A DNA stretch of 64,000 nucleotides from an uncultured Aequorivita sp. (GCA_937125455.1 CAKZLK010000012.1:50241-114240), one strand, 5' to 3'. Counted from the first letter of the stretch, positions 14,921 to 49,753 are shown. Numbers and translations are program-made. The notes: generated by a model not told the origin, from the letters alone.

Positions 14921-14926
14921 TTTTTT

Positions 14927-14984
14927 AGTATTCAGTTTGCAGTAGCAGTTTGCAGAACTGAATACTGCAACTGCAAACTGCTAC
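14927..14984 (-). terminator. interleaved inverted repeats at the alaS 3' end (probable terminator)
   Basis: A, AGTATTCAGTT (14927-14937), pairs with A', AACTGAATACT (14956-14966). B, GTAGCAGTTTGCAG (14942-14955), pairs with B', CTGCAAACTGCTAC (14971-14984). Confidence 0.5.
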
Positions 14985-20191: not shown

Positions 20192-20989
20192 ATGAAACAT
20201 TTTCTTCAGAAATATAAAATACTGTTTGTATTAATTGGCACTGCATTTCTATCTGAAAATGTTTCGGCTCAGTATGAAATTCCTCCAATCCCTTCGGTTC
20301 AAACATCGGTTTATGATTATATAAACTTGCTTACACCTTCACAAAAAAGTGCACTGGAAAATAAGTTGATCCGCTATGCAGATTCCACTTCCACTCAGAT
20401 TGTTTGTATTATTATAGGTTCTACCAATGGTGAAGATATTTCTATGCTCGGTGCTGAATGGGGCCAGAAATGGAAAATTGGCCAAAAAGGCGAAGACAAC
20501 GGAATTGTTATTACTCTTGCCAAAGACGATCGAAAAGTTGATATAAATACAGGCTACGGAATTGAATACCGCATAACAGATTTAATGTCTGAACGCATTA
20601 TCAACCGCATCATGATTCCCGAATTTAAAACCGGGAATTATTACGCTGGCTTAGACAAAGGCAGTGACGCAGTATTTGCAGCTTTAAAAGGCGAATTCAA
20701 GGAAGACCGTGATTTCGGGAAAAAAGACAGCGGGCACATTCCATTTTTTATCATTTTCGTATTCATCATTATTATACTGGCATTAATTCGTAAAGGTGGC
20801 AAAGGCGGCGGCAAAGGTGGCGGCGGAAGTCTATTAGATATTATTGTACTAAGTAGTCTTGGCCGTGGTGGTTTCGGTGGCGGAGGCGGTAGCTTTGGCG
20901 GTGGCGGTAGTTTCGGCGGCGGAGGTGGCTTTGGCGGCGGTTTCGGCGGCGGTGGCTTTGGCGGTGGCGGCGCTAGTGGAGGTTGGTAA
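20192..20989 (+). CDS. TPM domain membrane protein (YgcG-like) with Gly-rich tail
   Basis: 265 aa with a signal peptide, a TPM domain, a TM segment (FFIIFVFIIIILALI) and a GGFGGGG repeat tail. Confidence 0.8.
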   Translation: MKHFLQKYKILFVLIGTAFLSENVSAQYEIPPIPSVQTSVYDYINLLTPSQKSALENKLIRYADSTSTQIVCIIIGSTNGEDISMLGAEWGQKWKIGQKGEDNGIVITLAKDDRKVDINTGYGIEYRITDLMSERIINRIMIPEFKTGNYYAGLDKGSDAVFAALKGEFKEDRDFGKKDSGHIPFFIIFVFIIIILALIRKGGKGGGKGGGGSLLDIIVLSSLGRGGFGGGGGSFGGGGSFGGGGGFGGGFGGGGFGGGGASGGW

Positions 20990-35984: not shown

Positions 35985-36097
35985 TGTTTATTTTTTGGAG
36001 TCACGAAACACGACTGTTGGAATCACGACTTTTTTCTTTAACACACGAAACACGACGTTTTGAAACAAGACTTATTGATCAATTTGGCAAATGCGAA

Positions 36098-36129
36098 AAC
36101 ATCCCCCTAACCCCCTTCAAAGGGGGAAT
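36098..36129. repeat. 32-nt element AACATCCCCCTNNCCCCCTTCAAAGGGGGAAT, copy 1
   Basis: Lies between the E2 stop and the E1 start. Nearly identical to 43198-43229 and 50737-50768. Confidence 0.85.
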
Positions 36130-38134: not shown

Positions 38135-38149
38135 TATTTTAAATTATTT

Positions 38150-38590
38150 GACAAAAAGATAAAAGAATTAAGAGACAGTTTTTAGTTCAATGTATTTTTA
38201 AAATTTGATATCATTGCCTGTAATTTTTGTATAGTTTGTAAATCAAACGCACAAATCAATTGTGTCTCCCATTCAAATGAAGAACCCAAAGCAGTTTCTA
38301 AATACTGAATAAAATGCTTATCTGAATTTCTGGCCGAACCCTCTGCAATATTTGATGCAATAGAAATAGAACAACGTTGCAACTGATTTGAAAGACCATA
38401 AATTTCAGATTTAGGGAATTTGCAAGTAATAGTATAGGTTTCCTTCACAAGCTTTCTTGCTTCCTGCCAAATTGCCAATTTTCTAAAATTATGCATTAAT
38501 GCCATTTTAAACTACATTATCTTTTCATCCTTTTCATCCTTTTCATCCTTTTCGTCCTTTTCGTCTTTTTACCCTTTGGTCTTTTTACTA
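38150..38590 (-). repeat. IVS-like cassette A: repeat arms bracketing a four-helix-bundle ORF
   Basis: The right arm at 38521-38565 is five tandem 9-mers (CTTTTCATC x3, CTTTTCGTC x2) with degenerate copies to 38590. The left arm at 38150-38178 (GACAAAAAGATAAAAGAATTAAGAGACAG) is a degenerate complement. Confidence 0.6.
38182..38505 (-). CDS. four-helix-bundle protein (23S rRNA intervening-sequence protein family)
   Basis: 107 aa: FRKLAIWQEARKLVKETY...PKSEIYGLSNQLQRCSISIASNIAEGSAR is the characteristic pattern of this family. Confidence 0.85.
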   Translation of the reverse strand: MALMHNFRKLAIWQEARKLVKETYTITCKFPKSEIYGLSNQLQRCSISIASNIAEGSARNSDKHFIQYLETALGSSFEWETQLICAFDLQTIQKLQAMISNFKNTLN

Positions 38591-38612
38591 TTTGATCCGT
38601 TCGTGTCTACAA

Positions 38613-39371
38613 TTAACTTTCGCCAAACTTTTTCAATGTTTCTTTTGTGAATTCTGAAAGCACCAATCTGCCAGAAATAACAGCTCTTTCCGACAATAAT
38701 TCATCCCAATCTTCGGTGCCGCGCCAGAAAACTTTTTTCATTTCTTTCATGGCTTCGGGATTGTAAGTGCACAGATTTTCTGCACATTTTTGAACGGCTT
38801 CATCTAATTCTTCCAAAGAATCAAACACTTGATTGTACAAACCTTTTTGGCGTGCCCATTCGGCTTCGTAAAAGGAATTTGCGTCAATAGCGATTTGACT
38901 CATTCCGCTCAAGCCAAGTTTGCGCTCAACGGCTGGGCCAACCACAAACGGACCAATTCCAACATTTAATTCACTTAATTTTATCGCAGCAAATTTTGTC
39001 GCCATACAGTAATCGGTTGCAGAAGCAACCCCTACACCACCACCAACGGTTTTTCCCTGAATTCTTCCGATGATAAATTTTGGACATTTGCGCATGGCGT
39101 TTATTACATTGGCAAATCCGCTAAAGAATACTTTCCCCGTTTCGGCATCGTTGATGTTTATCAATTCGTTGAAACTGGCTCCAGCACAGAATGTTCTATC
39201 GCCACCGCTTTTAAGAATAATAACTTTTACGTCGTCATTATTTCCAGCATCGGTGATTGTATTTGCCAGTTTTGCCAACAAATCTCCCGGAAGGCTGTTA
39301 TGTGCCGGATGGAAGAATTCAATGGTTGCAATTGCATTTTCGGTTTTTAGGTTTACGTACGGTTTATCCAT
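38613..39371 (-). CDS. enoyl-CoA hydratase/isomerase family protein
   Basis: 252 aa with a crotonase fold (VIILKSGGDRTFCAGASFNEL, GKTVGGGVGVASATDY). Confidence 0.85.
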   Translation of the reverse strand: MDKPYVNLKTENAIATIEFFHPAHNSLPGDLLAKLANTITDAGNNDDVKVIILKSGGDRTFCAGASFNELININDAETGKVFFSGFANVINAMRKCPKFIIGRIQGKTVGGGVGVASATDYCMATKFAAIKLSELNVGIGPFVVGPAVERKLGLSGMSQIAIDANSFYEAEWARQKGLYNQVFDSLEELDEAVQKCAENLCTYNPEAMKEMKKVFWRGTEDWDELLSERAVISGRLVLSEFTKETLKKFGES

Positions 39372-39459
39372 TCTTAAATAATAAATTTTAAATGCAAAAT
39401 GTAAAAGTATGTTTCAAACCATCTTTTACATTTTTAATTTTATATTTTTCGGTTTTAAA

Positions 39460-41955
39460 TTACAGTAATCCAAATTGTTCAAAATGGTGGTTCAAATGCT
39501 TCCGCTCCAACAAATACCATTCGTAACGATTCATTTCGCCAAAAACCAAATTGTTTAATTTAGCTTCTGGGTTTTCTTTGAAATAGGTTTTATAAGCTTC
39601 CCTTTCTTCAAGAAATTTCTCCTTCGCCGTTGCTAAATCGGGATAGTTCAATTTATCCAATGTGTCTTTTTCGAGCATTGGAAAATTTGTATTACGCGGA
39701 AATTTGTCATAATTATATAGGCTTGCATGCACTTTTTCCAAAATTTTTTCTGGCGTTGTAGTTTCAAAATCCTGAATTTTTCCTGAAGCAATTTTATAAG
39801 TGTATTCCAGATGCTCCAGCATATGCTGTGGCGTCATAATACCCCATTTTGGCTTGGTATCTACCGTTAATTTGTTCAATAATTCCTGAATTTTTTCATC
39901 AGTCATTTCAACAAAAGTTTCTTGCTTCTTTTGAACCATTGTGAGAATTGTAGCCAAGGCAACTAGTTCATCATCGTTATCAAAAACCTCAACAAACCAC
40001 TTTACGATTCCACTAGGATGTTCAGCAGAAGCGACGTCTCTATCAACTTTTTGTTTGCAAGTCAACCGAACATAAACGGTATCATTATGATACAACGGCC
40101 GCAGGAATCGGCAGTCCTCCAAACCGTAGTTTGCAGCAACAGGACCTTTGTTTGGATACACAAACAACCCCGCCGCAGCGGAAATAATGAAATAACCGTG
40201 AGCAGTTCGCTTTTCGAAAATGCTCCCGTCAAGTGAAGTTATATCAGTGTGGGCATAAAAATGATCCCACGTAAGATTGGCGAAATTGATAATATCTGTA
40301 TCCGTAAATGTGCGCTTATGTGTTTTAAGCGACATACCCGGCTCGATGTCTTCCCAATGATATTTGAATGGATGTTGTTCGGTTTCTTTGTATTTAGAAT
40401 TTGGTTGGTAAATACCTGTTACTTCGGTTAAGGTTGTTGGCGAACCTTGAATGGCACAACGCTGTAAATAATGTTTTACACCGCGAATACCACCCATCTC
40501 CTCACCGCCGCCGGCACGTCCCGGACCGCCGTGGATAAGGTTTGGTAACGGCGAACCGTGACCTGTACTTTCCTTCGCGCTTTCCCTATTCAGAATTAAA
40601 ATCCTTCCATGATGCGTTGCTGCAGAAACAGTGTATTCTTTTGCAATTTTATTATCATTGGTTATAATGGAACTCACCAAAGAACCTTTTCCCATTTTGG
40701 AAAGCTTTATTGCTTCTTCCAAATTTTTATAAGGCATTAATGTACTCACGGGTCCGAAAGCTTCGGTTATGTGTGCAGCCTCGTTTTGCAAAGGATTGTC
40801 TTCGCGAAGCAAAATAGGTTTCATAAAAGATCCTTTTTTTGAATCGGCGCCTGTGACTTTAAAATCATCAAAATCGCCGTAAACTATTTGTGCGGTTTTT
40901 GTGATTTTTGAAATCTGTTCTTTCACTGAATTGCGTTGTGCATCGCTAACCAATGAACCCATTCGAACCTCTTTTAATCTTGGATCTCCAATGGTAACTT
41001 TGTCGAGTTGTTTTCCGAGGGCGATTTGAACATCTTCAATCAATTTTTCGGGAACGATAATTCGTCGAATTGCAGTACATTTCTGTCCGCATTTCACGGT
41101 CATTTCATTTCGAACTTCTTTTATGAAAAGATCAAATTCCGGTGTTCCCGGAACTGCATCTTCCCCTAAAATAGAAGCATTCAAACTATCGGCTTCCATA
41201 GTGAAAGGAACCGATTCCTCAATCAATCGCGGATGTTGTTTTAGTATTTTTCCAGTACTTGCCGAACCTGTAAACGTAATGACATCCTGTGATTCTACAG
41301 TATCTAAAATGTTTTTAGCGGTTCCGCTTATTAGTTGCAACGAACCCTCTGGAAGAATTTTTGAAGCGATGATTTCCTTAACCACTGCTTCCGTTAAATA
41401 AGCAGTTTGCGGAGCTGGCAAAACGACGGCTGGCATTCCAGCCATCCAGTTTACGGCACATTTCTCCAACATTCCCCAAATAGGGAAGTTGAAAGCATTT
41501 ATATGCACAGCAACACCCTCGCGAGGCACCATAATGTGGTGCGCCATAAAACGTCCACCGCGTGAAAGATCAATCGGGTCGCCTTCCACATCAAAAGGTT
41601 GGTTTGGAAATAATTTCCGAAGGGATGCATTGGCAAAAAGATTACCAAAACCGCCTTCAATATCAATCCAACTGTCAATTTTTGTAGCTCCAGTTCTATA
41701 ACTTATTTCGTAAAATTGGTCCTTCCTTTTGGTCAGGTACATTGCCAATTTTTTCAGCATCAGTCCACGTTCCTGAAAAGTCATTTTCCGAAGCACATTG
41801 CCTTTTTCCCTTCCGTATTGTAAGATTGAAGGAATATCGAGCCCTTCCGTAGTTACACTTGTAAACTGTTCTCCGGTTATAGAATCGAGAATTGGGCTTC
41901 CTTCTCCTTTTCCATCCGTCCAATTTCCTAATATATAATGTTGTGTTTTTGTCAT
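39460..41955 (-). CDS. paaZ: PaaZ-type bifunctional aldehyde dehydrogenase / MaoC hotdog hydrolase with extra C-terminal domain
   Basis: 831 aa. Comprises an ALDH domain (EADSLNA, GQKCTAIRR), a MaoC-like hotdog domain (TDTDIINFANLTWDHFYAHTD) and an additional ~150 aa tail. Confidence 0.85.
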   Translation of the reverse strand: MTKTQHYILGNWTDGKGEGSPILDSITGEQFTSVTTEGLDIPSILQYGREKGNVLRKMTFQERGLMLKKLAMYLTKRKDQFYEISYRTGATKIDSWIDIEGGFGNLFANASLRKLFPNQPFDVEGDPIDLSRGGRFMAHHIMVPREGVAVHINAFNFPIWGMLEKCAVNWMAGMPAVVLPAPQTAYLTEAVVKEIIASKILPEGSLQLISGTAKNILDTVESQDVITFTGSASTGKILKQHPRLIEESVPFTMEADSLNASILGEDAVPGTPEFDLFIKEVRNEMTVKCGQKCTAIRRIIVPEKLIEDVQIALGKQLDKVTIGDPRLKEVRMGSLVSDAQRNSVKEQISKITKTAQIVYGDFDDFKVTGADSKKGSFMKPILLREDNPLQNEAAHITEAFGPVSTLMPYKNLEEAIKLSKMGKGSLVSSIITNDNKIAKEYTVSAATHHGRILILNRESAKESTGHGSPLPNLIHGGPGRAGGGEEMGGIRGVKHYLQRCAIQGSPTTLTEVTGIYQPNSKYKETEQHPFKYHWEDIEPGMSLKTHKRTFTDTDIINFANLTWDHFYAHTDITSLDGSIFEKRTAHGYFIISAAAGLFVYPNKGPVAANYGLEDCRFLRPLYHNDTVYVRLTCKQKVDRDVASAEHPSGIVKWFVEVFDNDDELVALATILTMVQKKQETFVEMTDEKIQELLNKLTVDTKPKWGIMTPQHMLEHLEYTYKIASGKIQDFETTTPEKILEKVHASLYNYDKFPRNTNFPMLEKDTLDKLNYPDLATAKEKFLEEREAYKTYFKENPEAKLNNLVFGEMNRYEWYLLERKHLNHHFEQFGLL

Positions 41956-41957
41956 AA

Positions 41958-43169
41958 CTAATAATTCACATTTTCAATAATCGCTGCATAACCTTGTCCC
42001 ACGCCTACACACATTGTGATCAAGGCATATCTTTTGTTTTGCTCTTGAAGTTCTAAAGCTGCTGAATAAGCAAGCCGAGCTCCAGTAACACCAAGCGGAT
42101 GGCCGATAGCGATTGAACCGCCGTTAGGATTTATTCGAGGATCATCATCTTTTAATCCCCATTCGCGGATGCACGCCAAAGCTTGTGATGCAAAGGCTTC
42201 ATTCAACTCAATTATATCCATATCTTCCATTTTCAAACCTGCTTTCTTTAAAGCTTTTTTTGAAGCTTCCACTGGGCCGATACCCATAATTCGTGGTTCT
42301 ACGCCAATTACTGCGGAACTAACAATTCGCGCAATAGGTTTTAAATTATATTTTTTAACGGCATCTTCAGAAGCAATTATTGTTGCAGCGGCACCGTCAT
42401 TTAATCCTGAAGAATTTCCTGCAGTTACACTTCCATCTTTTTTGAAGGCTGGACGCAATTTCGCCAAAACTTCTTTAGTTGTTTCCGGACGAATGAATTC
42501 ATCATCTTTAAAAATAATTGGGTCTTTTTTTCGCTGTGGAATTTCCACAGAAACTATTTCTTTAGCCAACCTTCCATTTTCCTGAGCTTTTGTAGCTTTC
42601 ATTTGTGAATGATATGCAAATGCATCTTGGTCTTCACGTGAAATATTGTGTTTTTCAACCAAATTTTCAGCTGTGTTTCCCATTCCGTCAGTGCCATACA
42701 TTTCGGCCATTTTTGGGTTTACGAATCGCCATCCAAAACTTGAATCGTACATTTTAGAATCTGTTCCGAAAGCTTTTGAAGGTTTTGCAATTACATAAGG
42801 CCCGCGTGTCATATTTTCAACGCCCCCAGAAATAAACAGATCGCCATCGCCAGCTTTTATAGCCCTATTGGCGTGAATGATTGCGGAAAGTCCACTGCTA
42901 CAAAGCCTGTTTACTGTTTCACCAGGAACTGTAACAGGTAATCCCGCTAAAAGTGAAGCCATTCGAGCAACATTTCTATTGTCTTCCCCCGCTTGATTGG
43001 CACAGCCGAGGATTACATCATCGTAAGCTTCTTTGGGGATGTTTGGGTTTCTTTTTACTAATTCAGCGATTACCAATGCTGCCAAATCATCTGTTCGCAC
43101 AGTGCTTAGCGTTCCTTGATAACTTCCTATTGGGGTTCGTATTCCGTCTATTATATATGCGTTTTTCAT
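41958..43169 (-). CDS. paaJ: 3-oxoadipyl-CoA / acetyl-CoA C-acyltransferase (thiolase)
   Basis: 403 aa with the active-site Cys context VNRLCSSGL and the C-terminal motifs NPNGGSIAIGHPLG and CVGVGQG. Confidence 0.9.
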   Translation of the reverse strand: MKNAYIIDGIRTPIGSYQGTLSTVRTDDLAALVIAELVKRNPNIPKEAYDDVILGCANQAGEDNRNVARMASLLAGLPVTVPGETVNRLCSSGLSAIIHANRAIKAGDGDLFISGGVENMTRGPYVIAKPSKAFGTDSKMYDSSFGWRFVNPKMAEMYGTDGMGNTAENLVEKHNISREDQDAFAYHSQMKATKAQENGRLAKEIVSVEIPQRKKDPIIFKDDEFIRPETTKEVLAKLRPAFKKDGSVTAGNSSGLNDGAAATIIASEDAVKKYNLKPIARIVSSAVIGVEPRIMGIGPVEASKKALKKAGLKMEDMDIIELNEAFASQALACIREWGLKDDDPRINPNGGSIAIGHPLGVTGARLAYSAALELQEQNKRYALITMCVGVGQGYAAIIENVNY

Positions 43170-43197
43170 TTCTTATAATATAATTAATCCGGAGGAA

Positions 43198-43229
43198 AAC
43201 ATCCCCCTGTCCCCCTTCAAAGGGGGAAT
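43198..43229. repeat. 32-nt element AACATCCCCCTNNCCCCCTTCAAAGGGGGAAT, copy 2
   Basis: AACATCCCCCTGTCCCCCTTCAAAGGGGGAAT lies between the metallopeptidase stop and the thiolase start. Confidence 0.85.
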
Positions 43230-43239
43230 AAACTCGTTA

Positions 43240-44097
43240 TTAATTTAAAATTTCTGAAAAGGTATCACCCTGTTTTATATCGCCAGTTTTATAGCCTTTC
43301 AGAAACCATTTTTTGCGTTGTTCTGAGCTCCCGTGCGTAAAACTATCGGGGACAACATTCCCCTGCATTCTTTTTTGGATGGCATCATCGCCCACTGCAT
43401 TGGCCGCACTCAGTGCCTCATCAATATCGCCTTCCTCAAGATATTCTTGATTGTAATGCGCCCAAAGTCCCGCATAAAAATCTGCTTGAAGTTCAAGCGC
43501 CACAGATAATTTGTTGGCTTCATTTCTATTTTGGCGTTGCAGTTGTGTTACTTTTTGCGAAGTTCCGAGTAATGTCTGTACGTGATGACCTATTTCGTGA
43601 GCTGTTACATAGGCAATGGCAAAATCGCCACCCTGTGCACCAAAACGGGTTTTTAATTCATCAAAAAATGCCAAATCCATATACAATTTTTGATCCGCAG
43701 GACAGTAAAATGGTCCCGAAGCTGAGCTTGCATTTCCACAACCAGTGCTTACTGCATCAGTAAAAAGAACCATCGTGGGGTCCTTATATTGTCCAAGATT
43801 ATTATCACTGAAAACTTTTCCCCAAACATCTTCCGTATCGGCTAAAACAGTCGCCATAAAATTTCCCATTTCCTTTTCCTGGGCAGTAAGTTCTCTTTGC
43901 TCAGTTTGCTGAATGGTCTGGCTGTTTCCTATTTGCTCCACGATAGGTGCAAGTTGTTGCCCAGTTTCACCACCAAAAAATTGTAAAGCAAGAACAATTA
44001 GTGTTACCGCTATTCCGCCACCAGCGGCCAATTTACCTTTGCTCATACCGCGACGATCGTCTAAGTTACCGCTTTGTCTTCTGCCTTGCCATTTCAT
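43240..44097 (-). CDS. neutral zinc metallopeptidase (YpfJ-like)
   Basis: 285 aa with an N-terminal TM segment and the HEIGHH zinc motif (AYVTAHEIGHHVQ). Confidence 0.8.
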   Translation of the reverse strand: MKWQGRRQSGNLDDRRGMSKGKLAAGGGIAVTLIVLALQFFGGETGQQLAPIVEQIGNSQTIQQTEQRELTAQEKEMGNFMATVLADTEDVWGKVFSDNNLGQYKDPTMVLFTDAVSTGCGNASSASGPFYCPADQKLYMDLAFFDELKTRFGAQGGDFAIAYVTAHEIGHHVQTLLGTSQKVTQLQRQNRNEANKLSVALELQADFYAGLWAHYNQEYLEEGDIDEALSAANAVGDDAIQKRMQGNVVPDSFTHGSSEQRKKWFLKGYKTGDIKQGDTFSEILN

Positions 44098-44203
44098 AAT
44101 TTGAACATTTATATTTGTTAAGGGTTCATTTAATATTGTTGACTTAAAATTAAGCTTTCAATTTGAATATTATCACTTCAAAAATCAGATATCATTAATT
44201 TTA

Positions 44204-44608
44204 CTACTCCCAATCCTTGCTAGTTCTATAAACTACACCTTTAAAGAGTGCAACCAATTCATCCCCGCGCTTTACTTCAACGATATTGAAACCTAGTTTA
44301 TTCCCCACTTTTTCGATTACAGATTCTGCAGTTAAATAATCTCCTTCATTCAAGGCTTCAATATGATTTATTGAAGTTTCTATGGAAACTGCATACTTTC
44401 CGTGGGTGTTTGCCGCGAAACCGAAAGCCGTGTCGGCAAGACTATAACTTATGCCTCCGTGGGCTTTGTTCATACTATTCAGCATTTCTTTGCGAACCGT
44501 CATTGCAACTTTGCATCTGCCCTTTTCAACTTCCAATATTTCAATACCAAGCCAGGAGCTGAAAGCATCTTGACTGAGCATTTTATGTGGTATTTTCTTT
44601 CCTTCCAT
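44204..44608 (-). CDS. paaI: hotdog-fold acyl-CoA thioesterase, PaaI family
   Basis: 134 aa with the PaaI-like core NSMNKAHGGISYSLADTAFGFA. Confidence 0.8.
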   Translation of the reverse strand: MEGKKIPHKMLSQDAFSSWLGIEILEVEKGRCKVAMTVRKEMLNSMNKAHGGISYSLADTAFGFAANTHGKYAVSIETSINHIEALNEGDYLTAESVIEKVGNKLGFNIVEVKRGDELVALFKGVVYRTSKDWE

Positions 44609-44698
44609 TCAAATTTAAAAATAATAAATGTAAAATTTAAAAGGCCAAAGTCAGACGATCACTTTTACATTTTTAATTTTTCGGCTTTACATTTTACA

Positions 44699-45904
44699 TT
44701 AATAAAACGTTCTTTTTTCTTTTTTCATTCTTCTTAAAATAGGCGAACAACGGTATCTGTCTTCATGATATTCATCGTAAAGTTGATCCATTTTTTCAAC
44801 GCACCAATCAATTCCTTTTTCATCTGCCCAAGCCAGTAAGCCTTTCGGATAGTTTACGCCTTTGGTCATTGCGTTGTCTATATCTTCTGCGGAAGCGATA
44901 TTCCAAAAAAGTGCGTCGGCTGCTTCGTTTATGAGCATTACCAAAATTCTTTCAAAAATATTTTTAGCTTTTTCAGAAGACAAAGACCCCTCGACTGCGC
45001 TCGGGGTGACGTTCTTTGAATAATCGTAATATCCTTTTCCACTTTTTCTACCCAAATAGCCAGCTTCCGCAAAACGTTTTTGAGTGAAAGCGGGTTTGTA
45101 CCTTGGGTCGAAATAAAATGCTTCAAAAACGGTTTCTGTTACGGTGTAATTTACATCGTTACCAATAAAATCCATCAATTCGAAAGGTCCCATCCTGAAA
45201 CCTCCAATTTCTTTCATTGCGGAATCTATTTCAGAAAAAGTTGCAATTCCTTCTTCATAAATCCGGAGTGCCTCACCGTAAAAGGGACGTGCAACGCGGT
45301 TTACAATAAATCCGGGAGTATCTTTTGCAACCGCAACCGTTTTTCCCCAATCCTTAATTGTTTTTACAGAAATATTTAAAGTTTCCTCGGAGGTTTGGAT
45401 TGCGGGAATTACCTCAACCAATTTCATCAATGGCGCTGGATTGAAAAAGTGAATCCCAACGCAGCGTTCTGGTTTTTGCAACGAAGAAGCTATTGAAGCA
45501 ATGGAAAGAGAAGATGTATTAGAAGCAATAATACAATCTTCACTCACAAACTTTTCGAGTGTTGAGAACACATTTTTCTTTATCTCCAAATTTTCGACAA
45601 TGGCTTCAATTGTCAAATCGGATTTTTTCAATTCTTTTAAGGAATTGACATATTTTATGTTGTTTTGGATGCGTTCTTTTTCTGCGGAATCAATTTTTCC
45701 TTTCTCGACCAAACGATCCATTATTTTCTCTAAATCAGCTTTGGCTTTATCCAAGGCTTCCGTTTTTGTATCGTATAATTTTACTGAGCAACCAGCTGTG
45801 GCAGCTACTTGTGCAATGCCCGCTCCCATTGTTCCGCTTCCTATAATTCCAACAAATTTGATTAACGATTGCTGATTTTTGATTTTTGATTTTTGATTTT
45901 CCAA
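44699..45904 (-). CDS. paaH: 3-hydroxyacyl-CoA dehydrogenase
   Basis: 401 aa with a Rossmann motif (VGIIGSGTMGAGIA) and 3HCDH N- and C-terminal domains. The only canonical start upstream of the GxGxxG is the TTG at 45904, inside a repeat arm, so the start is uncertain. Confidence 0.85.
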   Translation of the reverse strand: MENQKSKIKNQQSLIKFVGIIGSGTMGAGIAQVAATAGCSVKLYDTKTEALDKAKADLEKIMDRLVEKGKIDSAEKERIQNNIKYVNSLKELKKSDLTIEAIVENLEIKKNVFSTLEKFVSEDCIIASNTSSLSIASIASSLQKPERCVGIHFFNPAPLMKLVEVIPAIQTSEETLNISVKTIKDWGKTVAVAKDTPGFIVNRVARPFYGEALRIYEEGIATFSEIDSAMKEIGGFRMGPFELMDFIGNDVNYTVTETVFEAFYFDPRYKPAFTQKRFAEAGYLGRKSGKGYYDYSKNVTPSAVEGSLSSEKAKNIFERILVMLINEAADALFWNIASAEDIDNAMTKGVNYPKGLLAWADEKGIDWCVEKMDQLYDEYHEDRYRCSPILRRMKKEKRTFY

Positions 45905-46323
45905 ATTATTAAATTTTATTTTTTTGTGAAGCTGTTTTAATACTAGCTACAAAAATTGAAATTAACTCATTGTTCTCTAAAAGTAATAAGTCAATCATTT
46001 GAACATTGGTTATTAAATTAGCTCCTTTTTGAATTTTCATATTAACGAAAGACTCTCTTAATTCCTTCAGTGAAAGTTTCATTTTATGAAGAAAATCTCT
46101 CGATGATTCAGCACTTCTCGCTTCCCCATAATTTAAAGCTACAGACGTAGTTGATCGTATTAGCTGTTTTGTCAAATGCTCTGAGGCAAATGAACCATCA
46201 AAGTGCTTGCACATTAAAATCACATCCACCGCAAACTTTATCAGTCTATCTTCAAGCTGGTTGGGTATCATTTCGTCATTTTTTACTTCTGAAATCAGCA
46301 ATCAAAAATCGTTAATCGTTAAT
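45861..46323 (-). repeat. IVS-like cassette B: inverted heptamer-repeat arms bracketing a four-helix-bundle ORF
   Basis: The left arm (45861-45900) is ATTAACGATTGCTGATTTTTGATTTTTGATTTTTGATTTT. The right arm (46291-46323) is GAAATCAGCAATCAAAAATCGTTAATCGTTAAT, whose reverse complement is ATTAACGATTAACGATTTTTGATTGCTGATTTC. Confidence 0.8.
45909..46271 (-). CDS. four-helix-bundle protein (23S rRNA intervening-sequence protein family)
   Basis: ATG at 46269-46271 (MIPNQLEDRLIKFAVDV...). Family pattern EHLTKQLIRSTTSVALNYGEARSAES..DFLHKMKLSLKELRES. Confidence 0.8.
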   Translation of the reverse strand: MIPNQLEDRLIKFAVDVILMCKHFDGSFASEHLTKQLIRSTTSVALNYGEARSAESSRDFLHKMKLSLKELRESFVNMKIQKGANLITNVQMIDLLLLENNELISIFVASIKTASQKNKI

Positions 46324-47102
46324 TACCTTCCTTTAAACTCAGGTTTTCTTTTATTTACAAACGCATCAACACCTTCCGCATAATCTTCACTTTGAGCGGC
46401 TTCTATTTGAAGTTTGCTTTCCAAATTTAATTGATCTTCCAAAGAATTTTGCATTGAATGATTTAACAAACGCTTCGTCAATCCCAATGCTTTTGTAGGC
46501 ATATTCGCCATTGTGTTTGCAATATTATTTACTTCTTCCATAAAGTTTTCTGAAGCAACCACTTTATAAACCATTCCCAGTTTTTCGGCTTCTTCTGCGG
46601 AAACTTTATCGCCCAACATCATTAAAGCAGAAGCTTTTTGAAAACCGATCAATCGTGGCAAAAAGAAGGTTCCTGCACTATCGGGCACCAATCCTATTTT
46701 ACTAAACGCTTGAATAAAACTAGCGTTTTCTGAAGCAATAACCACATCGCAGGCTAAAGCTATATTGGCTCCCGCCCCAGCGGCTACACCATTAATGGCT
46801 CCAATTACAGGTTTTTCAATATTTCGAATTCGGGAAATAATTGGGTTATAATGTTCTTCAAGAATTTTTTTGAAACCTGGATTCAATTCAGGCGAAGTAA
46901 CTTCCTTTAAATCTTGTCCGGCACAAAAAGCCTTTCCACTTCCAGTGATTACAATTGCACGGACTTCTGGATTCTTTTCGCAGGCATCCAATTCGTTTTG
47001 AAGCAACAACGCCATTTCACGGTTGAAGCTATTGAAAACCTCTGGACGGTTTAGTGTTAAGGTTGCAATATTATTATTAACTGTTTTTAAAATTGAGCTC
47101 AT
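46323..47102 (-). CDS. paaG: 2-(1,2-epoxy-1,2-dihydrophenyl)acetyl-CoA isomerase (crotonase family)
   Basis: 259 aa. LTLNRPEVFNSFN...ITGSGKAFCAGQDL closely follows the PaaG pattern. Confidence 0.8.
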   Translation of the reverse strand: MSSILKTVNNNIATLTLNRPEVFNSFNREMALLLQNELDACEKNPEVRAIVITGSGKAFCAGQDLKEVTSPELNPGFKKILEEHYNPIISRIRNIEKPVIGAINGVAAGAGANIALACDVVIASENASFIQAFSKIGLVPDSAGTFFLPRLIGFQKASALMMLGDKVSAEEAEKLGMVYKVVASENFMEEVNNIANTMANMPTKALGLTKRLLNHSMQNSLEDQLNLESKLQIEAAQSEDYAEGVDAFVNKRKPEFKGR

Positions 47103-47117
47103 TCATTTTTTATTGAA

Positions 47118-47215
47118 GATTGCAGATTAACGATTGTAGATTTTTGAAGTTTTGTTATTGTATTTTTCTAATTCAAAAATCTGTAATCATCAATCGTTAA
47201 TCGTTAATCGTTAAT
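47118..47215. repeat. ORF-less long hairpin built from heptamer-repeat arms (paaD-paaG gap)
   Basis: The left arm (47118-47148) is GATTGCAGATTAACGATTGTAGATTTTTGAA. The right arm (47172-47215) is TTCAAAAATCTGTAATCATCAATCGTTAATCGTTAATCGTTAATC. The loop is 23 nt. Confidence 0.75.
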
Positions 47216-47718
47216 CATTTAAGACATTTAAAATAATCAAAAGGTTCTTGGCAATCGTCGCATTTAAAAAGTGCTTTGCAAGCCGTGGAACCAAATTGAC
47301 TAACTAAATGGGTATTTGTGCTTCCGCATTGCGGGCATTTTACCATTTTTTTTTCGCCGAGCAAAACATCTTTGTCGGCTGTTTCTGAAAGCGGACGGGC
47401 AATACCGTATTCCTCCATTTTTTTTAAACCTTCCTCTGAAATCCAATCGGTAGACCAGGCGGGTGAAAGAATCAATTCAACTTCTGCTTTCTTTCCAATT
47501 TCTGAAAAGGCTTTTTTTAAATCATCACCAATTACATCCATTGCCGGGCAACCGGAATAGGTTGGAGTAAGTTTTATGTGAACAATTCCATTTTCTTCTA
47601 TTGCTTCGCGAATTACACCCAGATCCAAAACAGTAAGCACAGGAATCTCCGGATCTGAAACGGTTTTCATAACTGGAATTAAGTCTTGCTGTATGTTCGG
47701 CTTTTCTGTGAGTGTCAT
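47215..47718 (-). CDS. paaD: 1,2-phenylacetyl-CoA epoxidase subunit PaaD
   Basis: 167 aa with a DUF59/MIP18-like domain (DPEIPVLTVLDLG, TPTYSGCPA) and a C-terminal Cys-pair zinc ribbon (CPQCGS...CDDC). Confidence 0.85.
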   Translation of the reverse strand: MTLTEKPNIQQDLIPVMKTVSDPEIPVLTVLDLGVIREAIEENGIVHIKLTPTYSGCPAMDVIGDDLKKAFSEIGKKAEVELILSPAWSTDWISEEGLKKMEEYGIARPLSETADKDVLLGEKKMVKCPQCGSTNTHLVSQFGSTACKALFKCDDCQEPFDYFKCLK

Positions 47719-47724
47719 AATTTA

Positions 47725-47849
47725 TTAACGATTGTAGGAACCTAATTAACGATTGTTGATTAACGATTTTTGATTGTTGAAGTTTAAAATATTAAATCAA
47801 TTGCTCTTTAATTCTTAAATCTGAAATCAAAAATCAGCAATCGTTGATC
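47725..47849. repeat. ORF-less long hairpin built from heptamer-repeat arms (paaC-paaD gap)
   Basis: The left arm (47725-47782) contains TTAACGATTGTTGATTAACGATTTTTGATTGTTGAAG. The right arm (47814-47849) is CTTAAATCTGAAATCAAAAATCAGCAATCGTTGATC. The loop is about 31 nt. Confidence 0.7.
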
Positions 47850-47853
47850 TTTT

Positions 47854-48603
47854 TTACCAAGTCATATTTGGATAGGTGCGCTGCATATATTGCAAGTCGG
47901 CCAAAATATAGCCCATATGTTCAGTGTGAACTCCTTCTTTTCCACCTTTGGTGAAATATTTGTTTTCGGGGACTGTAAGGGTGGCTTCTTTTAAAACTTC
48001 GGAAACCTCTTCGTAATATTTTTCTTTGAAAGTTGAAACATCAATTCCGACACCTTCTTTTCCCTTAGCCTTTTCAGCATCGGTCGTAAAGAAAAGTTCG
48101 TCAGTAAATCGCCAAAGATCATCGATTGCTTCTTGCATTTTAGCGTTACTTTCTTCAGTGCCATCACCCAAACGTTTTACCCAATCGCTTGAAAAACGTT
48201 TGTGATAACTCACTTCCTTAATTCCTTTCTTGGCAATTGCAGCTAAAGTTTCATCAGGACTGTACTGCAATTTTTCCATCAACATCAAGTGATACACATC
48301 AAATAAAAACTGACGGCCAATAACGTAACCGAAATGTGTATTTGGCTGTTCAACAAGCAGACAATTTTTATATTCTCTTTCAATCCTTAAAAAAGCGATA
48401 TCGTCTTCCGTTTTACCTTCTCCGGAAATTTTTGCGGCATATTGATAATAACTTCGGGTTTGGCCGAGTAAATCCAATGAAATATTTGTCAGTGCAATAT
48501 CGGTTTCCAAGCTTGGACCGTGTCCGCAGAGTTCACCCAATCGCTGGGCGAGGATTAGGGAGTTGTCTGCGATTGTGAGGATGTAGTTATATAAATGCTT
48601 CAT
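47854..48603 (-). CDS. paaC: 1,2-phenylacetyl-CoA epoxidase subunit PaaC
   Basis: 249 aa. DNSLILAQRLGELCGHGPSLETDIALTNISLDLLGQ follows the PaaC pattern. Confidence 0.85.
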   Translation of the reverse strand: MKHLYNYILTIADNSLILAQRLGELCGHGPSLETDIALTNISLDLLGQTRSYYQYAAKISGEGKTEDDIAFLRIEREYKNCLLVEQPNTHFGYVIGRQFLFDVYHLMLMEKLQYSPDETLAAIAKKGIKEVSYHKRFSSDWVKRLGDGTEESNAKMQEAIDDLWRFTDELFFTTDAEKAKGKEGVGIDVSTFKEKYYEEVSEVLKEATLTVPENKYFTKGGKEGVHTEHMGYILADLQYMQRTYPNMTW

Positions 48604-48615
48604 TTTAAATTATTA

Positions 48616-49025
48616 AAATCGAAATCGAAACTCAAATCGAAATCGAAAACATTAGCTATATTTTTTGAGAAGTGAAACAACAATTCTTATTAGTTCGTCA
48701 TTTTCATTTCGTATTGCTGCAATATTATTAGACTCAATGAGATTCGCTTTAATTTGAATATTAATATTCCTTAGTGATTCTCGTAATTCTTTCAATGTAA
48801 TCCTTAATTTATTGGCTCTATCTTTATCTGAACCCGCTCCTTCAAATTCTCCGAAATTTAATGCAGATGAACAAGCTGACCTTATAAGCTGTTTTGCTAA
48901 ATAATCGGCGGCAAAAGGTTTTGGTGGTTCTTTAAAAATTACAACCACAGATGCTGCGAAATCTTCGAAACGGCTATCTAAATTATAGTTCTTCATTTTT
49001 CGATTTCATTTTCGATTTCGATTTC
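48616..49025 (-). repeat. IVS-like cassette C: inverted heptamer-repeat arms bracketing a four-helix-bundle ORF
   Basis: The left arm (48616-48650) is AAATCGAAATCGAAACTCAAATCGAAATCGAAAAC. The right arm (48997-49025) is TTTTCGATTTCATTTTCGATTTCGATTTC, its complement. Confidence 0.85.
48652..48996 (-). CDS. four-helix-bundle protein (23S rRNA intervening-sequence protein family, divergent)
   Basis: 114 aa. DYLAKQLIRSACSSALNFGEFEGAGSDKDRANKLRITLKELRES parallels the 45909-46271 paralogue. Confidence 0.75.
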   Translation of the reverse strand: MKNYNLDSRFEDFAASVVVIFKEPPKPFAADYLAKQLIRSACSSALNFGEFEGAGSDKDRANKLRITLKELRESLRNINIQIKANLIESNNIAAIRNENDELIRIVVSLLKKYS

Positions 49026-49028
49026 CCT

Positions 49029-49313
49029 CTACATATGTTTCACTTCATCTGGCAAATCATAAAAAGTAGGATGACGATATACTTTGTCCTGTGCAGGCTC
49101 AAACATTTCACCATTATCTGCAGGATTTGAAGCGGTAATATTTTTACTTTCAACAACCCAAATGCTCACGCCTTCATTTCTTCTAGTATAAACATCGCGG
49201 GCATTTTCCATTGCCATTTCAGCATCGGCAGCGTGCAGACTTCCAAAATGACGGTGTTCCAATCCATTTTTACTGCGGACGAATATTTCCCAAAGGGGCC
49301 AATTTTTTTTCAT
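49029..49313 (-). CDS. paaB: 1,2-phenylacetyl-CoA epoxidase subunit PaaB
   Basis: 94 aa. WEIFVRSKNGLEHRHFGSLHAADAEMAMENARDVYTRRNEGVSIWVV is the PaaB signature. Confidence 0.9.
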   Translation of the reverse strand: MKKNWPLWEIFVRSKNGLEHRHFGSLHAADAEMAMENARDVYTRRNEGVSIWVVESKNITASNPADNGEMFEPAQDKVYRHPTFYDLPDEVKHM

Positions 49314-49320
49314 AAATATA

Positions 49321-49753
49321 GTCTTGAGTAGTTAGTATTTTGTATTGAGTTATTCATTATTTCTCTAAAGATTTAATTAATGCGTAATTCATTTTTTGTA
49401 CTTCTATTACTTCTTTAAGAATTGGTTCAACCAAATTTTCTGAGACTAAATTTAACTTATGCGAAAGTATTAATTGAGTAAAAAGCTCATACGCTGAACC
49501 ATTTGCAATGCTAATGAAATTTTTAAATTCACCTTTTGTATTTCTTCCTGCACCTTCAGCAATATTTGACGGAACAGAAATAGCACTTCTTCTTATTTGG
49601 CTAGTCAATTCATATTTTTCTTCTTTTGGGAACTTTGAAGATAATTTATAAGTTTCAACTGCAATGTCCATTGCTTTATTCCAAACTTTTAAATCATTTA
49701 ATACATTCATAATGGTTAGATTCTCATTACTAATCTCTCAATACTCAATACTG
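49321..49753 (-). repeat. IVS-like cassette D: inverted repeat arms bracketing a four-helix-bundle ORF
   Basis: The left arm (49321-49352) is GTCTTGAGTAGTTAGTATTTTGTATTGAGTTA. The right arm (49717-49753) is TAGATTCTCATTACTAATCTCTCAATACTCAATACTG, whose reverse complement contains TATTGAGTATTGAGAGATTAGTA. Confidence 0.7.
49357..49710 (-). CDS. four-helix-bundle protein (23S rRNA intervening-sequence protein family)
   Basis: 117 aa. LKVWNKAMDIAVETYKLSSKFPKEEKYELTSQIRRSAISVPSNIAEGAGR is the family pattern. Confidence 0.85.
   Translation of the reverse strand: MNVLNDLKVWNKAMDIAVETYKLSSKFPKEEKYELTSQIRRSAISVPSNIAEGAGRNTKGEFKNFISIANGSAYELFTQLILSHKLNLVSENLVEPILKEVIEVQKMNYALIKSLEK

Follow-up and report, generated by a model that had tools for sequence, protein, structure and literature searches.

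The window, a stretch of 64 kb of DNA, harbors a paa operon for phenylacetate degradation with four small open reading frames (ORFs), c1 to c4, in gaps between paa genes (Table 1). The first-pass annotation had described them as co-oriented with the operon and as members of the four-helix-bundle family of the 23S rRNA intervening sequences (IVS). Both statements agreed with the outcome of the analysis: all four are positioned on the minus strand like the paa genes, and in the HMM comparison all four exceeded the curated cut-off of PF05635 (33.8 bits) with 109.9, 44.6, 40.6, and 134.1 bits for c1, c2, c3, and c4, respectively (E-values of 8.8e-32, 1.8e-11, 3.2e-10, and 2.6e-39), and that of TIGR02436 (24 bits) with 100.2, 73.9, 61.6, and 129.1 bits. 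The c1 product covered only positions 1-89 of 106 of the PF05635 profile, its helix 4 being shortened in the alignment. A six-frame HMM scan revealed no further family member in the 64 kb. The c4 product was 99% identical to a protein of A. antarctica and, as the only one of the four compared in this way, was similar to 2GSC (XCC0516; E-value of 5e-19) and 2RLD (E-value of 1e-4), both entries with 5 chains. The PADLOC defense-protein models gave no meaningful match for c1 to c4. Between positions 37000 and 53000, Rfam 15 indicated no rRNA, the single match being sub-threshold and due to chance (E-value of 0.87), and the hosts of c1 to c4 are protein-coding paa genes, not helix 25 or 45 of a 23S rRNA.

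Each ORF is bracketed by two arms of short repeats in inverted orientation, and this arrangement of arm, ORF, and arm is called a cassette here. The repeats previously noticed at all four ORFs were recovered by TRF and as inverted repeats, albeit with a period of 6 to 7 and not strictly 7 in case of c3. The 3' arm of c2 is located inside the N-terminus called for PaaH, which has a TTG start. Whole-cassette folds yielded unremarkable MFE z-scores between -1.3 and +0.4, the energy being determined largely by the ORF, and the arms were therefore folded alone. Compared with 200 dinucleotide shuffles each, the arm stems of c2 (32 pairs, -26.1 kcal/mol, z of -4.84, 0/200), c3 (26 pairs, -30.8 kcal/mol, z of -5.19, 0/200), and c4 (17 pairs, -16.4 kcal/mol, z of -2.34, 5/200) were significant, but that of c1 with its 24 bulged pairs was not (-18.9 kcal/mol, z of -1.20, 25/200). 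The long stem proposed around each ORF was thus upheld for three cassettes and not for c1, in the gap of which relatives also possess 8-9-mer arrays. Compensatory changes among relatives were present in 8 of the 27 consensus pairs of the c3-type stem.

Table 1. Positions of the cassettes and of the repeat hairpins in the window
Feature	Position	Strand	Description
c4 5' arm	49731-49753	-	AGTATTG-type heptamers, begins 3 nt past PaaA stop codon
c4 four-helix-bundle ORF	49357-49710	-	117 aa, between PaaA and PaaB
c4 3' arm	49333-49355	-	CTCAATAC.. AATACT, end ~19 nt ahead of PaaB ATG
c3 5' arm	48997-49026	-	GAAATC(G) repeats, period 6-7
c3 four-helix-bundle ORF	48652-48996	-	114 aa, between PaaB and PaaC; subfamily B (LKELRES type)
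c3 3' arm	48614-48643	-	TTTCGA repeats
ORF-less GATTNNN-repeat hairpin	47719-47853	-	Fills PaaC-PaaD gap; z of -2.67; units are those of the c2 arms
ORF-less GATTNNN-repeat hairpin	47103-47214	-	Fills PaaD-PaaF gap; z of -5.75, 0/200 shuffles
c2 5' arm	46277-46322	-	GATTAAC GATTAAC GATTTTT GATTGCT GATTTCA, abuts PaaF stop codon
c2 four-helix-bundle ORF	45909-46271	-	120 aa from ATG at 46271, between PaaF and PaaH; subfamily B
c2 3' arm	45861-45907	-	AAAAATC x3, AGCAATC, GTTAATC
Weak TGTAAAA-repeat hairpin	44609-44698	-	PaaH-PaaI gap; z of -1.05, not significant
ORF-less AAATGTA-repeat hairpin	39372-39459	-	PaaZ-PaaG gap; z of -3.37
c1 5' array	38521-38594	-	9-mer GATGAAAAG / GACGAAAAG, 5.6 copies (TRF)
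c1 four-helix-bundle ORF	38182-38505	-	107 aa, shortened, between PaaG and PaaY
c1 3' arm	38149-38177	-	Degenerate complement of 9-mers
ORF-less heptamer hairpin	14921-14980	-	CAGTTTG.. / CAAACTG.., outside paa operon

Hairpins with cassette-type arms and without an ORF, which the first-pass annotation had overlooked, are also present in the window. Homologs of the hairpin in the PaaC-PaaD gap in two related loci, L003 and L017, carry the inner junction of c2, GATTGCTGATTTC[AT]GAA. The heptamer hairpin outside the paa operon begins at the stop codon of an 870-aa gene and ends 7 nt short of the following ATG.

The dN/dS values were 0.03 to 0.12 for the cassette ORFs (0.030 for the c4 orthologs, 0.040 for the c2 orthologs) and 0.02 to 0.075 for the Paa enzymes. 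This strong purifying selection indicates that the four-helix-bundle protein does something. Using a sigma-70 consensus that is unfit for promoters of Bacteroidota, 44 promoter-like sites were counted versus 41.4 ± 6.2 expected, and no arm was among the 19 terminator-like sites. Since neither a promoter nor a terminator specific to the cassettes was detectable, a cassette is presumably transcribed within the RNA of the host operon. None of 20 flanking ORFs contained a domain of a reverse transcriptase, integrase, or transposase, in agreement with the first inspection.

Distribution and remodeling of the cassettes

The comparison set of 80 orthologous paa operons from Aequorivita and relatives contained 102 four-helix-bundle ORFs in nine different gaps, all 102 being co-oriented, with up to five cassettes per operon. 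In the 525 kb of non-paa flank of the compared loci, no such ORF was found. The gap lengths indicated three states: a tight gap of 0-20 nt, a gap of 40-160 nt with an ORF-less repeat hairpin, or a gap of 420-500 nt with a full cassette. The stem begins at a median of 1 nt past the upstream stop codon and ends at a median of 9 nt ahead of the next ATG. Repeat hairpins without an ORF numbered 93 in the paa loci versus 102 cassettes, and their polarity was that of a G-rich 5' arm plus a C-rich 3' arm in 61 cases and the reverse in 2. These ORF-less hairpins are the same element minus the gene.

For 82 cassettes from the window and the 80 related loci, the mean duplex energy of the flanks was -34.7 kcal/mol, versus -21.8 kcal/mol for shuffled flanks and -21.9 kcal/mol with the arm of another cassette as the partner. 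The lag-7 autocorrelation was 0.44 in the arms versus a baseline of 0.29 and was absent within the ORF. A unit core, nnnAG(T)n, was conserved in the c4-like subfamily, and the conservation of the unit core amounted to 2.69 bits versus 1.81 ± 0.05 bits in the control. The earlier statement that the stem is conserved and not the sequence was correct for the stem, but the repeat period, mostly 7, and the short unit core are conserved as well. The number of repeat units varies between orthologs. Each genome has its own arm motif, common to the cassette arms and other nearby arrays, with 17 own-motif arrays versus 1.6 expected. Heptamer arms as a trait of any gene in these gaps were ruled out by GIY-YIG and MazF inserts, which are differently flanked, and a 7-nt unit serving as stop codons in three frames by the existence of period-6 and period-9 arms and by CAG as the commonest core.

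The first-pass annotation had regarded the cassettes as possibly selfish, and their presence across the orthologous operons was very patchy, not that of identical cassettes at identical sites, with at least 68 gains or losses counted as state changes on a tree of 72 loci. At least seven different occupants of the PaaB-PaaC gap were found among close relatives, and the occupants of one gap differed between the closest relatives, the window and L003. The same operon in L066, L074, L052, and L059 has gaps of 2-16 nt without hairpins. At the PaaA-PaaB junctions of 30 genomes, neither a target-site duplication nor a clean insertion junction was found; this gap had been remodeled by replacement from the stop codon into the first PaaB codons. 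Recent intragenomic copies were absent from the fetched loci compared, the best within-genome pair having 66% nucleotide identity, so that there is no sign of recent transposition. We infer the mobility of the cassettes from their distribution and not from recent copies, and much of the patchiness could be due to vertical descent combined with losses and allelic recombination.

Proteins with 74-78% identity are flanked by arms with the unit ATTAGGN in the B-C as well as in the H-I gap, and the FadB-FadA gap of the fad operon of A. nionensis contains a 70%-identical copy of the c4 lineage with AGTATTG arms. Arm motif and ORF lineage travel together, and the arm-ORF-arm module moves as a unit. 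A single-protein query retrieved 83 related ORFs in 80 metagenome loci with a GC content of 29-70%, which likewise had heptamer-array arms and displayed a median z of -2.55 for the flank duplex, a lag-7 autocorrelation of 0.44, and neighbors preferentially on the same strand (57:12 upstream, 54:13 downstream). One of these cassettes (locus L136) is located between two tRNA genes. Xanthomonas XCC0516 (PDB 2GSC) lies between accB and accC and has the arms GGGAATC and CATTCCC. Conserved motifs of 23S rRNA gave no match to a cassette inside this rRNA in the metagenome loci, which is weak evidence since rRNA rarely assembles in metagenomes. The PF05635-type family matched 21,066 clusters at 50% identity (E ≤ 1e-3). 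Cassettes are not specific to paa operons or Flavobacteriaceae but occur also in fad, tRNA, and accB-accC surroundings and in diverse metagenomic taxa.

The fold energies of sense and antisense strands were -29.5 and -29.0 in the paa set (p = 0.49), and the sense fold was only marginally better in the metagenome set (p = 0.045). Since these values are nearly equal, they do not separate a role at the RNA level from one at the DNA level.

Interpretation of the cassettes and competing explanations

A cassette is a gene for a 105-130-aa PF05635/TIGR02436 protein located in the loop that is closed by a stem of 15-30 bp; the arms of this stem are inverted arrays of about four to five tandem units of 6-9 nt, mostly 7. 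A cassette is located in sense orientation in the space that separates the stop codon of a gene from the following start codon, and the arm-ORF-arm module is the unit that is gained, lost, replaced, and carried between sites. This anatomy matches that of ORF-bearing 23S rRNA intervening sequences. The label “IVS-like” was appropriate, considering the shared protein family, the sense ORF in an inverted-repeat stem loop, and the tandem heptamers. The cassettes also behave as units that are dispensable, are gained and lost, and ride on transcripts of the host, in line with the earlier proposal, being co-oriented without exception, patchy, and without signals of their own. They are probably IVS-type elements that ride on operon transcripts and are members of a class of small cassettes with a wide distribution.

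In the transcript, pairing of the two arms would set the cassette apart as a domain of its own, and the base of the stem would bring the upstream stop codon beside the downstream start codon. By analogy to the rRNA IVS, RNase III probably cuts the stem, and such a cut would free the message for the four-helix-bundle protein while leaving the host cistrons usable. Cutting of the stem and release of the cassette would explain why operons, tRNA operons, and rRNA alike tolerate such insertions.

Punctuation of the operon to the benefit of the host would need nothing selfish or mobile: intercistronic RNA hairpins, selected by the host, would stabilize the mRNA, serve as sites of segmental decay, or act as translational-coupling devices, and the four-helix-bundle proteins would be recruited RNA-binding regulators. 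Hairpins that occupy precisely the space between stop and start codon, many unrelated hairpin types in the same gaps, purifying selection on the ORFs as strong as on the enzymes, a polarity fixed relative to transcription, and the absence of recent copies agree with this explanation and with these hairpin roles, but both are unlikely considering the streamlined relatives with their short and hairpin-free gaps, the different occupants of one gap in the window and L003, and the same arm-plus-ORF module in unrelated operons, phyla, and rRNA. A comparably low probability is given to a foldback or MITE-like transposon acting at the DNA level and to its mode of recognition, with arms as terminal inverted repeats or cruciform or hairpin DNA, an incidental RNA structure, a transposase or recombinase that is encoded elsewhere or recruited by the four-helix-bundle protein and recognizes the arms, and ORF-less hairpins as non-autonomous copies. 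The inverted arms would fit, as would ORF-less versions being about as many as the cassettes, the genome-specific arm motif with its surplus of own-motif arrays, the 186 GGGAATC sites in Xanthomonas campestris, and the equal fold energies of both strands in the paa set. Such a transposon should nevertheless leave target-site duplications, defined termini, or near-identical copies, which were absent; variable-length arrays abut the coding sequences, no transposase was found in the window ORFs scanned, and the strict orientation and G/C polarity even of the ORF-less hairpins would require an added assumption.

Retro-mobility, in which the excised stem-loop RNA would be copied by a reverse transcriptase in trans with the four-helix-bundle protein as an Avd-like cofactor binding this enzyme or RNA, followed by reinstallation in sense orientation, is very improbable. 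It would be in line with the strict sense orientation in mRNA, tRNA-operon, and rRNA hosts and with the homology to Avd (matches to PF22296, NF033474, and phrog_3206, all below the cut-off), and reiterative copying could yield tandem short repeats. Contradicting it are an Avd equivalog score of 27.8 versus a cut-off of 80, the absence of recent copies and of a template-repeat/variable-repeat pair, and the lack of a reverse transcriptase in the scanned ORFs of the window as well as in the gene calls of the fad and acc loci. Chance resemblance of AT-rich low-complexity intergenic DNA to inverted repeats around ordinary small genes can practically be dismissed. The c1 arms and the PaaH-PaaI hairpin were no better than shuffles and the whole-cassette z-scores were unremarkable, but the mismatched-partner and shuffle controls, the persistence of the architecture at 29-70% GC, the compensatory changes in the stem, and the conserved unit core refute this explanation.

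If the cassettes are considered as IVS-type elements, these elements colonize ordinary operon gaps, namely in paa, fatty-acid, accB-accC, and tRNA operons, and probably shape the processing of polycistronic mRNA and translational coupling in many phyla. The cassettes also cause annotation errors at downstream start codons. The system is small and directly testable with RNase III, a 110-aa protein, and a repeat array of 30 nt. The excess of 7-base repeats in bacterial genomes, which was noticed long ago, may be due to stem-enclosed cassettes. This joins the orphan S23p/four-helix-bundle family, the rRNA IVS, the origin and spread of which have been unclear since about 1990, and the heptanucleotide excess, which are separate topics in the literature found.

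A further-reaching proposal, which is rather doubtful, treats protein and arms as one system: a pentameric ring would read the core spaced by about 7 nt in RNA or DNA and, directly or via host enzymes, create, maintain, and spread the arrays. Binding of this ring to the tandem units of its own arms is a speculative guess. If true, ORF-less hairpins and solitary arrays would be non-autonomous offspring of the protein-arm system, and one element class would be behind the heptanucleotide excess (GGGAATC in Xanthomonas; TAACTGA in Beggiatoaceae, cyanobacteria, and Bacteroidetes), the rRNA intervening sequences, and probably the cyanobacterial STRR. It would represent a new kind of mobile element, with a small non-enzymatic nucleic-acid binder as its sole gene.

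Comparison with known systems

TRAP is a homo-oligomeric ring that reads a short conserved core at fixed spacing, namely the (G/U)AG repeats in the trp leader of Bacillus, and competes with an RNA hairpin. The cassettes resemble this system by an xAG(T) core per 7 nt, about four to five units, and a pentameric ring, but the fold is unrelated and binding by the four-helix-bundle protein is purely hypothetical. Eukaryotic foldback transposons possess long inverted termini of short tandem subrepeats, and most copies are without an internal gene. They are much larger and are moved by a DNA transposase, so that their likeness to the cassettes is architectural only. REP/BIME and MITE sequences are likewise hairpin-forming, intergenic, often within operons, transcribed, and present in coding and non-coding versions. 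In contrast to these, the cassette arms are variable-length tandem arrays instead of a fixed palindrome, target-site duplications are absent, no transposase or RAYT was seen, and the polarity to transcription is strict. Avd (PF22296, NF033474) is a homologous pentamer-forming four-helix bundle, to which c1 and c4 are weak matches (23 and 27.8 bits for NF033474, equivalog cut-off of 80 bits) and c2 and c3 no matches, but there is no reverse transcriptase, template repeat, or variable repeat near the cassettes.

The cyanobacterial STRR sequences are over-represented heptanucleotide tandem repeats. Similar repeats are GGGAATC in Xanthomonas and GGGGA(C/T)T in Nostoc (Rehm 2015, PMC4692102) and TAACTGA in Beggiatoaceae, cyanobacteria, and Bacteroidetes including Aequorivita sublithincola (MacGregor 2015, PMC4679880), and over-representation was also noted by Mrazek 2007, as cited there. 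The repeats are similar to the cassette arms in being intergenic, transcribed, mostly of about four units, close to the ends of coding sequences, and variable in steps of 7 nt. In X. campestris, they form 70 convergent pairs, and the XCC0516 cassette has these GGGAATC repeats as its arms. The papers interpret them as simple-sequence repeats, G-quadruplex formers, or binding sites of regulators, and the passages covered contain no link to a four-helix-bundle gene or an IVS.

The 23S IVS of Coxiella burnetii in helix 45 has a 28-bp terminal stem with a sense S23p ORF in its loop, two to three GACAGAT heptamers just upstream of the ORF, the number of which varies between strains, and mapped RNase III cuts in the stem (PMC4990558). 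Its ORF is decaying and apparently untranslated; ORF-bearing IVS also exist in Leptospira, Brucella, and Xanthomonas, as cited in PMC4990558, ORF-less IVS hairpins are known as well, and the distribution is sporadic (PMC4990558). The cassettes differ in being hosted by a protein-coding or, in L136, a tRNA operon instead of an rRNA helix and in the strong purifying selection on their ORFs compared with the decaying ORF in Coxiella, and RNase III cleavage, demonstrated for the IVS, is only predicted for them. Both have in common the same protein family (S23p is PF05635), a sense ORF in a stem of terminal inverted repeats, tandem heptamers, and a sporadic occurrence.

Four-helix-bundle ORFs in the paa operon

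The first-pass annotation had placed four small ORFs of the four-helix-bundle (4HB) family, c1 to c4, into gaps of the paa operon, which serves phenylacetate catabolism, and onto its strand. Both statements were borne out by the gene order on the minus strand, which is TetR, PaaE, PaaA, (c4), PaaB, (c3), PaaC, PaaD, PaaF, (c2), PaaH, PaaI, Zn-peptidase, PaaJ, PaaZ, PaaG, (c1), PaaY, with the identities of PaaB and PaaD confirmed separately. The family assignment held as well: all four products passed the curated thresholds for both PF05635 and TIGR02436, and a six-frame HMM scan of the 64 kb of the window yielded no fifth member. The ORFs belong to two subfamilies, with an NIAEG motif in c1 and c4 and LKELRES in c2 and c3; six positions, polar or hydrophobic, do not vary in either. 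PaaC of the window had its best match in the genome collection, 94%, in Aequorivita nionensis and A. antarctica, and c4 has 99% identity to a protein of A. antarctica, which places the origin of the window in an Aequorivita species.

The 4HB ORF is under purifying selection. The dN/dS values of the orthologous groups, named by the flanking Paa letters, were 0.030 (A-B), 0.040 (F-H), 0.075 (C-D), and 0.118 (B-C), and those of PaaB, PaaI, PaaC, and PaaD were 0.019 to 0.075. Neither an excess of sigma-70-like promoters, a consensus that does not fit Bacteroidota promoters, nor a terminator signal was visible at the cassettes, each composed of a 4HB ORF and two inverted arms of short tandem repeats. 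No Rfam family or defense-system model matched them. As noticed from the sequence before, no reverse transcriptase, integrase, or transposase domain is nearby, here among 20 ORFs spanning 13.9 to 64 kb of the window.

The Zn-metallopeptidase-like gene occurs in Aequorivita-type loci and is missing from most other genera, which indicates another insertion into the paa operon. Two further repeat regions were seen in the window (see the table), and the three GTCGTG(T/A)TTC copies upstream of the E1 dehydrogenase gene are possibly a regulator-binding array.

Features of the window and of loci from other genomes or metagenomes (L numbers); z is the folding z-score of the arms or hairpin alone against 200 dinucleotide shuffles
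Feature	Position	Strand	z	Remark
c1	38182-38505	-	-1.20, not significant	G-Y gap
c2	45909-46271	-	-4.84	F-H gap
c3	48652-48996	-	-5.19	B-C gap
c4	49357-49710	-	-2.34	A-B gap
ORF-less hairpin	PaaC-PaaD		-2.67	
ORF-less hairpin	PaaD-PaaF		-5.75	
ORF-less hairpin	PaaZ-PaaG		-3.37	
ORF-less heptamer hairpin	14921-14980	-		CAGTTTG CAGTTGC AGTATTC.. / CAAACTG CTACTGC AAACTGA..; far outside the paa operon
Zn-metallopeptidase-like gene	43240-44097			between PaaI and PaaJ
GTCGTG(T/A)TTC x3	36030-36125	-		plus G-rich hairpin CCCCCTTTGAAGGGGG, between E2 and E1 genes
GGC/GGT-rich tandem repeats	20860-20971			periods 6, 15, 18, 30; in 3' end of TPM-domain gene, encoding a glycine-rich tail
Second fad-operon cassette	L081 5610-5981; L082 5631-5981			thiolase to acyl-CoA dehydrogenase gap
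tRNA-operon cassette	L136 1230-1851			TAGTATT-type arms; between tRNA-Met and tRNA-Glu genes, co-oriented
XCC0516 (PDB 2GSC) homolog	L166 2924-3372			Xanthomonas campestris, intercistronic, accB-accC
GIY-YIG ORFs	PaaB-PaaC			L014, L024, L029, L031
GIY-YIG ORFs	PaaZ-PaaG			L015, L060, L070, L071
GIY-YIG ORF	PaaD-PaaF			L078
Solo REP-like hairpins	PaaC-PaaD			L006, L009, L014, L016, L019, L026, L042
Solo REP-like hairpins	PaaC-PaaD and PaaB-PaaC			L007, L011, L018, L020-L023, L029, L041
MazF/PemK-like toxin ORF	PaaJ-PaaZ			L014, L017, L026, L028, L029, L038, L039, L054, L063

Inverted arms and ORF-less hairpins

The tandem repeats and inverted pairs named in the first-pass annotation are present in the window. 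When folded alone, the arms of c2, c3, and c4 were more stable than their shuffled controls and those of c1 were not; c1, in which helix 4 is also truncated, is a decaying exception among otherwise confirmed cassettes. When the entire cassette was folded, c1, c3, and c4 retained the pairing of their outer arms, with unremarkable z-scores because the ORF dominates the energy. Over 82 cassettes, the mean duplex between upstream and downstream flank amounted to -34.7 kcal/mol, compared to -21.8 kcal/mol for shuffled flanks, -21.9 kcal/mol with the downstream flank of another cassette, and -22.5 kcal/mol with the downstream flank complemented. The stem of about 25 pairs starts at a median of 1 nt past the upstream stop codon and ends at a median of 9 nt before the next ATG. 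In nine c3-type relatives a 24-bp stem is kept; of the 27 predicted pairs, 8 show double changes that compensate each other. The 5' arm is rich in G and the 3' arm in C, and the arms are periodic, with an autocorrelation of 0.44 at lag 7 and 0.39 at lag 14 (baseline 0.29) and no such signal within the ORF; other unit lengths (6, 8, and 9 nt) are found as well, each in particular cassette lineages.

Similar arms exist without a gene. Hairpins on both sides of paaD, overlooked in the first reading, have their GATTNNN units in common with the c2 arms, and ORF-less GATTNNN hairpins at two related loci (L003 and L017) share with c2 the inner junction GATTGCTGATTTC[AT]GAA, which ties the ORF-less hairpins to the cassettes. 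ORF-less gaps of 50 to 260 nt had a median MFE z-score of -2.24 versus -0.23 for random pieces. The G/C polarity of ORF-less repeat hairpins relative to operon transcription was 61 versus 2 over 11 gaps, and since these hairpins lack an ORF, this bias is not explicable by a need for ORF expression. The hairpin at 14921-14980, located between alanyl-tRNA-synthetase-like and GSCFA-family genes, extends from the upstream stop codon to a point 7 nt short of the ATG.

Gain, loss, and probable movement in orthologous operons

A scan with PaaC assembled 80 paa loci from Aequorivita and neighboring genera, which contained 102 4HB ORFs, all 102 co-oriented with the operon, and none in the approximately 525 kb of non-paa flank. 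Nine gaps were occupied: B-C (29), H-I (17), F-H and G-Y (15 each), C-D and A-B (10 each), ZnP-J (8), and D-F and I-J (1 each). Gap lengths were trimodal, at 0 to 20, 40 to 160, and 420 to 500 nt. The presence/absence polymorphism for which the first-pass annotation had proposed to look was found: the distribution is patchy and needs at least 68 state changes on a neighbor-joining tree of 72 loci. Among close relatives, no fewer than seven kinds of occupant were counted in the PaaB-PaaC gap, where even L003, the closest relative of the window, has a different cassette.

Most clusters of proteins with at least 70% identity were confined to one gap, as expected from vertical descent. Some extend over more than one gap, and then the arm motif moves too, as with the ATTAGGN arms at both B-C and H-I. 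Proteins 70 to 75% identical to c4 occupy the FadB-FadA gap of the beta-oxidation operon in A. nionensis and Salinimicrobium, and in A. nionensis the arms of this copy pair perfectly over 18 bp of AGTATTG units, the c4 motif. Judged from such shared motifs, the cassette appears to travel as one unit of arms plus ORF. No target-site duplication was visible; the entire gap is replaced. Within a genome, cassettes share no more than 66% nucleotide identity, so that their spread is old or rare, and much of the patchiness may come from loss and allelic exchange via the conserved flanking genes. The arms of the second fad-operon cassette, AAATGCTGAATTCTAAATTTTGAATGA / TCATTCAAAATTTAGAATTCA, form 21 perfect base pairs and show little tandem periodicity; its 4HB protein differs between L081 (123 aa) and L082 (116 aa).

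PaaB begins with MENTKKNW in tight gaps, MSEKKNW behind a hairpin, and MKKNW behind a cassette. In the window, PaaB starts at 49313, downstream start codons being remodeled by insertions, and the TTG-started N terminus of PaaH as called is the c2 3' arm itself (45861-45907). Remodeled start codons are a likely source of annotation errors.

The GIY-YIG and MazF inserts in the same gaps have flanks quite unlike the repeat arms, which indicates that these arms are specific to the 4HB family. The GIY-YIG nuclease-like ORFs (about 110 aa) are a second hitch-hiking small-gene family. A short GC hairpin, TTCCCGCGAAGGCGGGAA or TGCGCACTTGTTGCGCA, stands before each of them and often also behind it; L019 contains a decayed remnant. 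Two solo REP-like hairpin families, AATTCCCGCGAAGGCGGGAATC and CACCCTGAGCGCAGTCGAAGGGT, reside in otherwise tight gaps, the former being the hairpin that also flanks GIY-YIG genes. The MazF/PemK-like ORF, found in several species, is accompanied by some 300 nt of additional upstream sequence, possibly a partner gene.

Cassettes beyond paa and comparison with known elements

The cassette architecture is general across phyla. A metagenome scan with c4, which matches 21,066 clusters (50% identity) at an E value of at most 1e-3, gave 80 loci with 42 to 79% identity and 29 to 70% GC. The 83 ORFs in these loci share the architecture: their flank duplex had a median z-score of -2.55, with 61% below -2, and flanks of about 50 to 60 nt. 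Same-strand neighbors prevailed upstream (57:12) and downstream (54:13). Arrays had a median of 4.4 units and were G-rich in 38 of 43 left-hand cases, striking arms being TACCCAG x6 / CTGGGTA x5 and CGTGAGG x6 / ACGCCTC x4. Additional arrays of a cassette's own unit occurred within a few kilobases at 10 of 43 loci, 17 arrays versus 1.6 expected, which indicates that each genome has its own repeat "dialect." The lag-7 autocorrelation was 0.44 (baseline 0.26), and aligned units share a core, nnnAG(T)n, of 2.69 bits versus 1.81 +/- 0.05 in column-permuted controls. The earlier view that a stem and not a sequence is conserved was therefore correct for the stem and too exclusive, because the repeat period and the unit core are conserved as well.

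The cassette between two tRNA genes resides in a stable-RNA operon, an intermediate between mRNA and rRNA hosts. Such an rRNA host is known from Coxiella, where the intervening sequence (IVS) of 428 nt in helix 45 contains a sense S23p (4HB) ORF, a 28-bp terminal stem with mapped RNase III cuts, and two to three tandem GACAGAT heptamers, their number depending on the strain (PMC4990558). On this precedent and the stem geometry, the arms would pair on the operon transcript, insulating the cassette and juxtaposing the neighboring stop and start codons. The stem would probably be cut by RNase III, which could make the insertion tolerable in mRNA, tRNA-operon, and rRNA hosts. More speculatively, a pentameric 4HB ring may bind four to five tandem units, in a manner likened to TRAP, for autoregulation or array propagation.

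The cassettes, with their anatomy, position, and orientation, their presence/absence polymorphism, and the co-inheritance of arms and ORF, are classified as elements of the IVS type that reside in protein-coding operons and have a defined repeat-arm architecture; the first-pass reading as IVS-like was right in kind, though incomplete in scope. In the open-access literature, no paper turned up that ties these heptamer repeats to the 4HB family or reports operon-borne cassettes of the IVS type; an earlier description may exist elsewhere. A term search of the text of Rehm et al. 2015 for "S23," "hypothetical protein," and "intervening" gave no hit and no link to a 4HB gene. The arms of the XCC0516 homolog, GGGAATC GGGAGTG GAGAATC GGGAATC / CATTCCC CATTCTC GACTCCC TATTCCC, with the accC ATG directly after the C-rich 3' array and no Shine-Dalgarno sequence between, are the "GGGAATC quadruplex-forming repeats" described there for X. 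campestris, at 186 sites, mostly with four units and including 70 convergent pairs (PMC4692102). Arrays of TAACTGA and other heptamers, Aequorivita sublithincola included, were described by MacGregor 2015 (PMC4679880), which also cites heptanucleotides as the most abundant long simple repeats of prokaryotes (Mrazek 2007). The cassettes connect the rRNA IVS with an orphan protein family and with this heptanucleotide-repeat excess.
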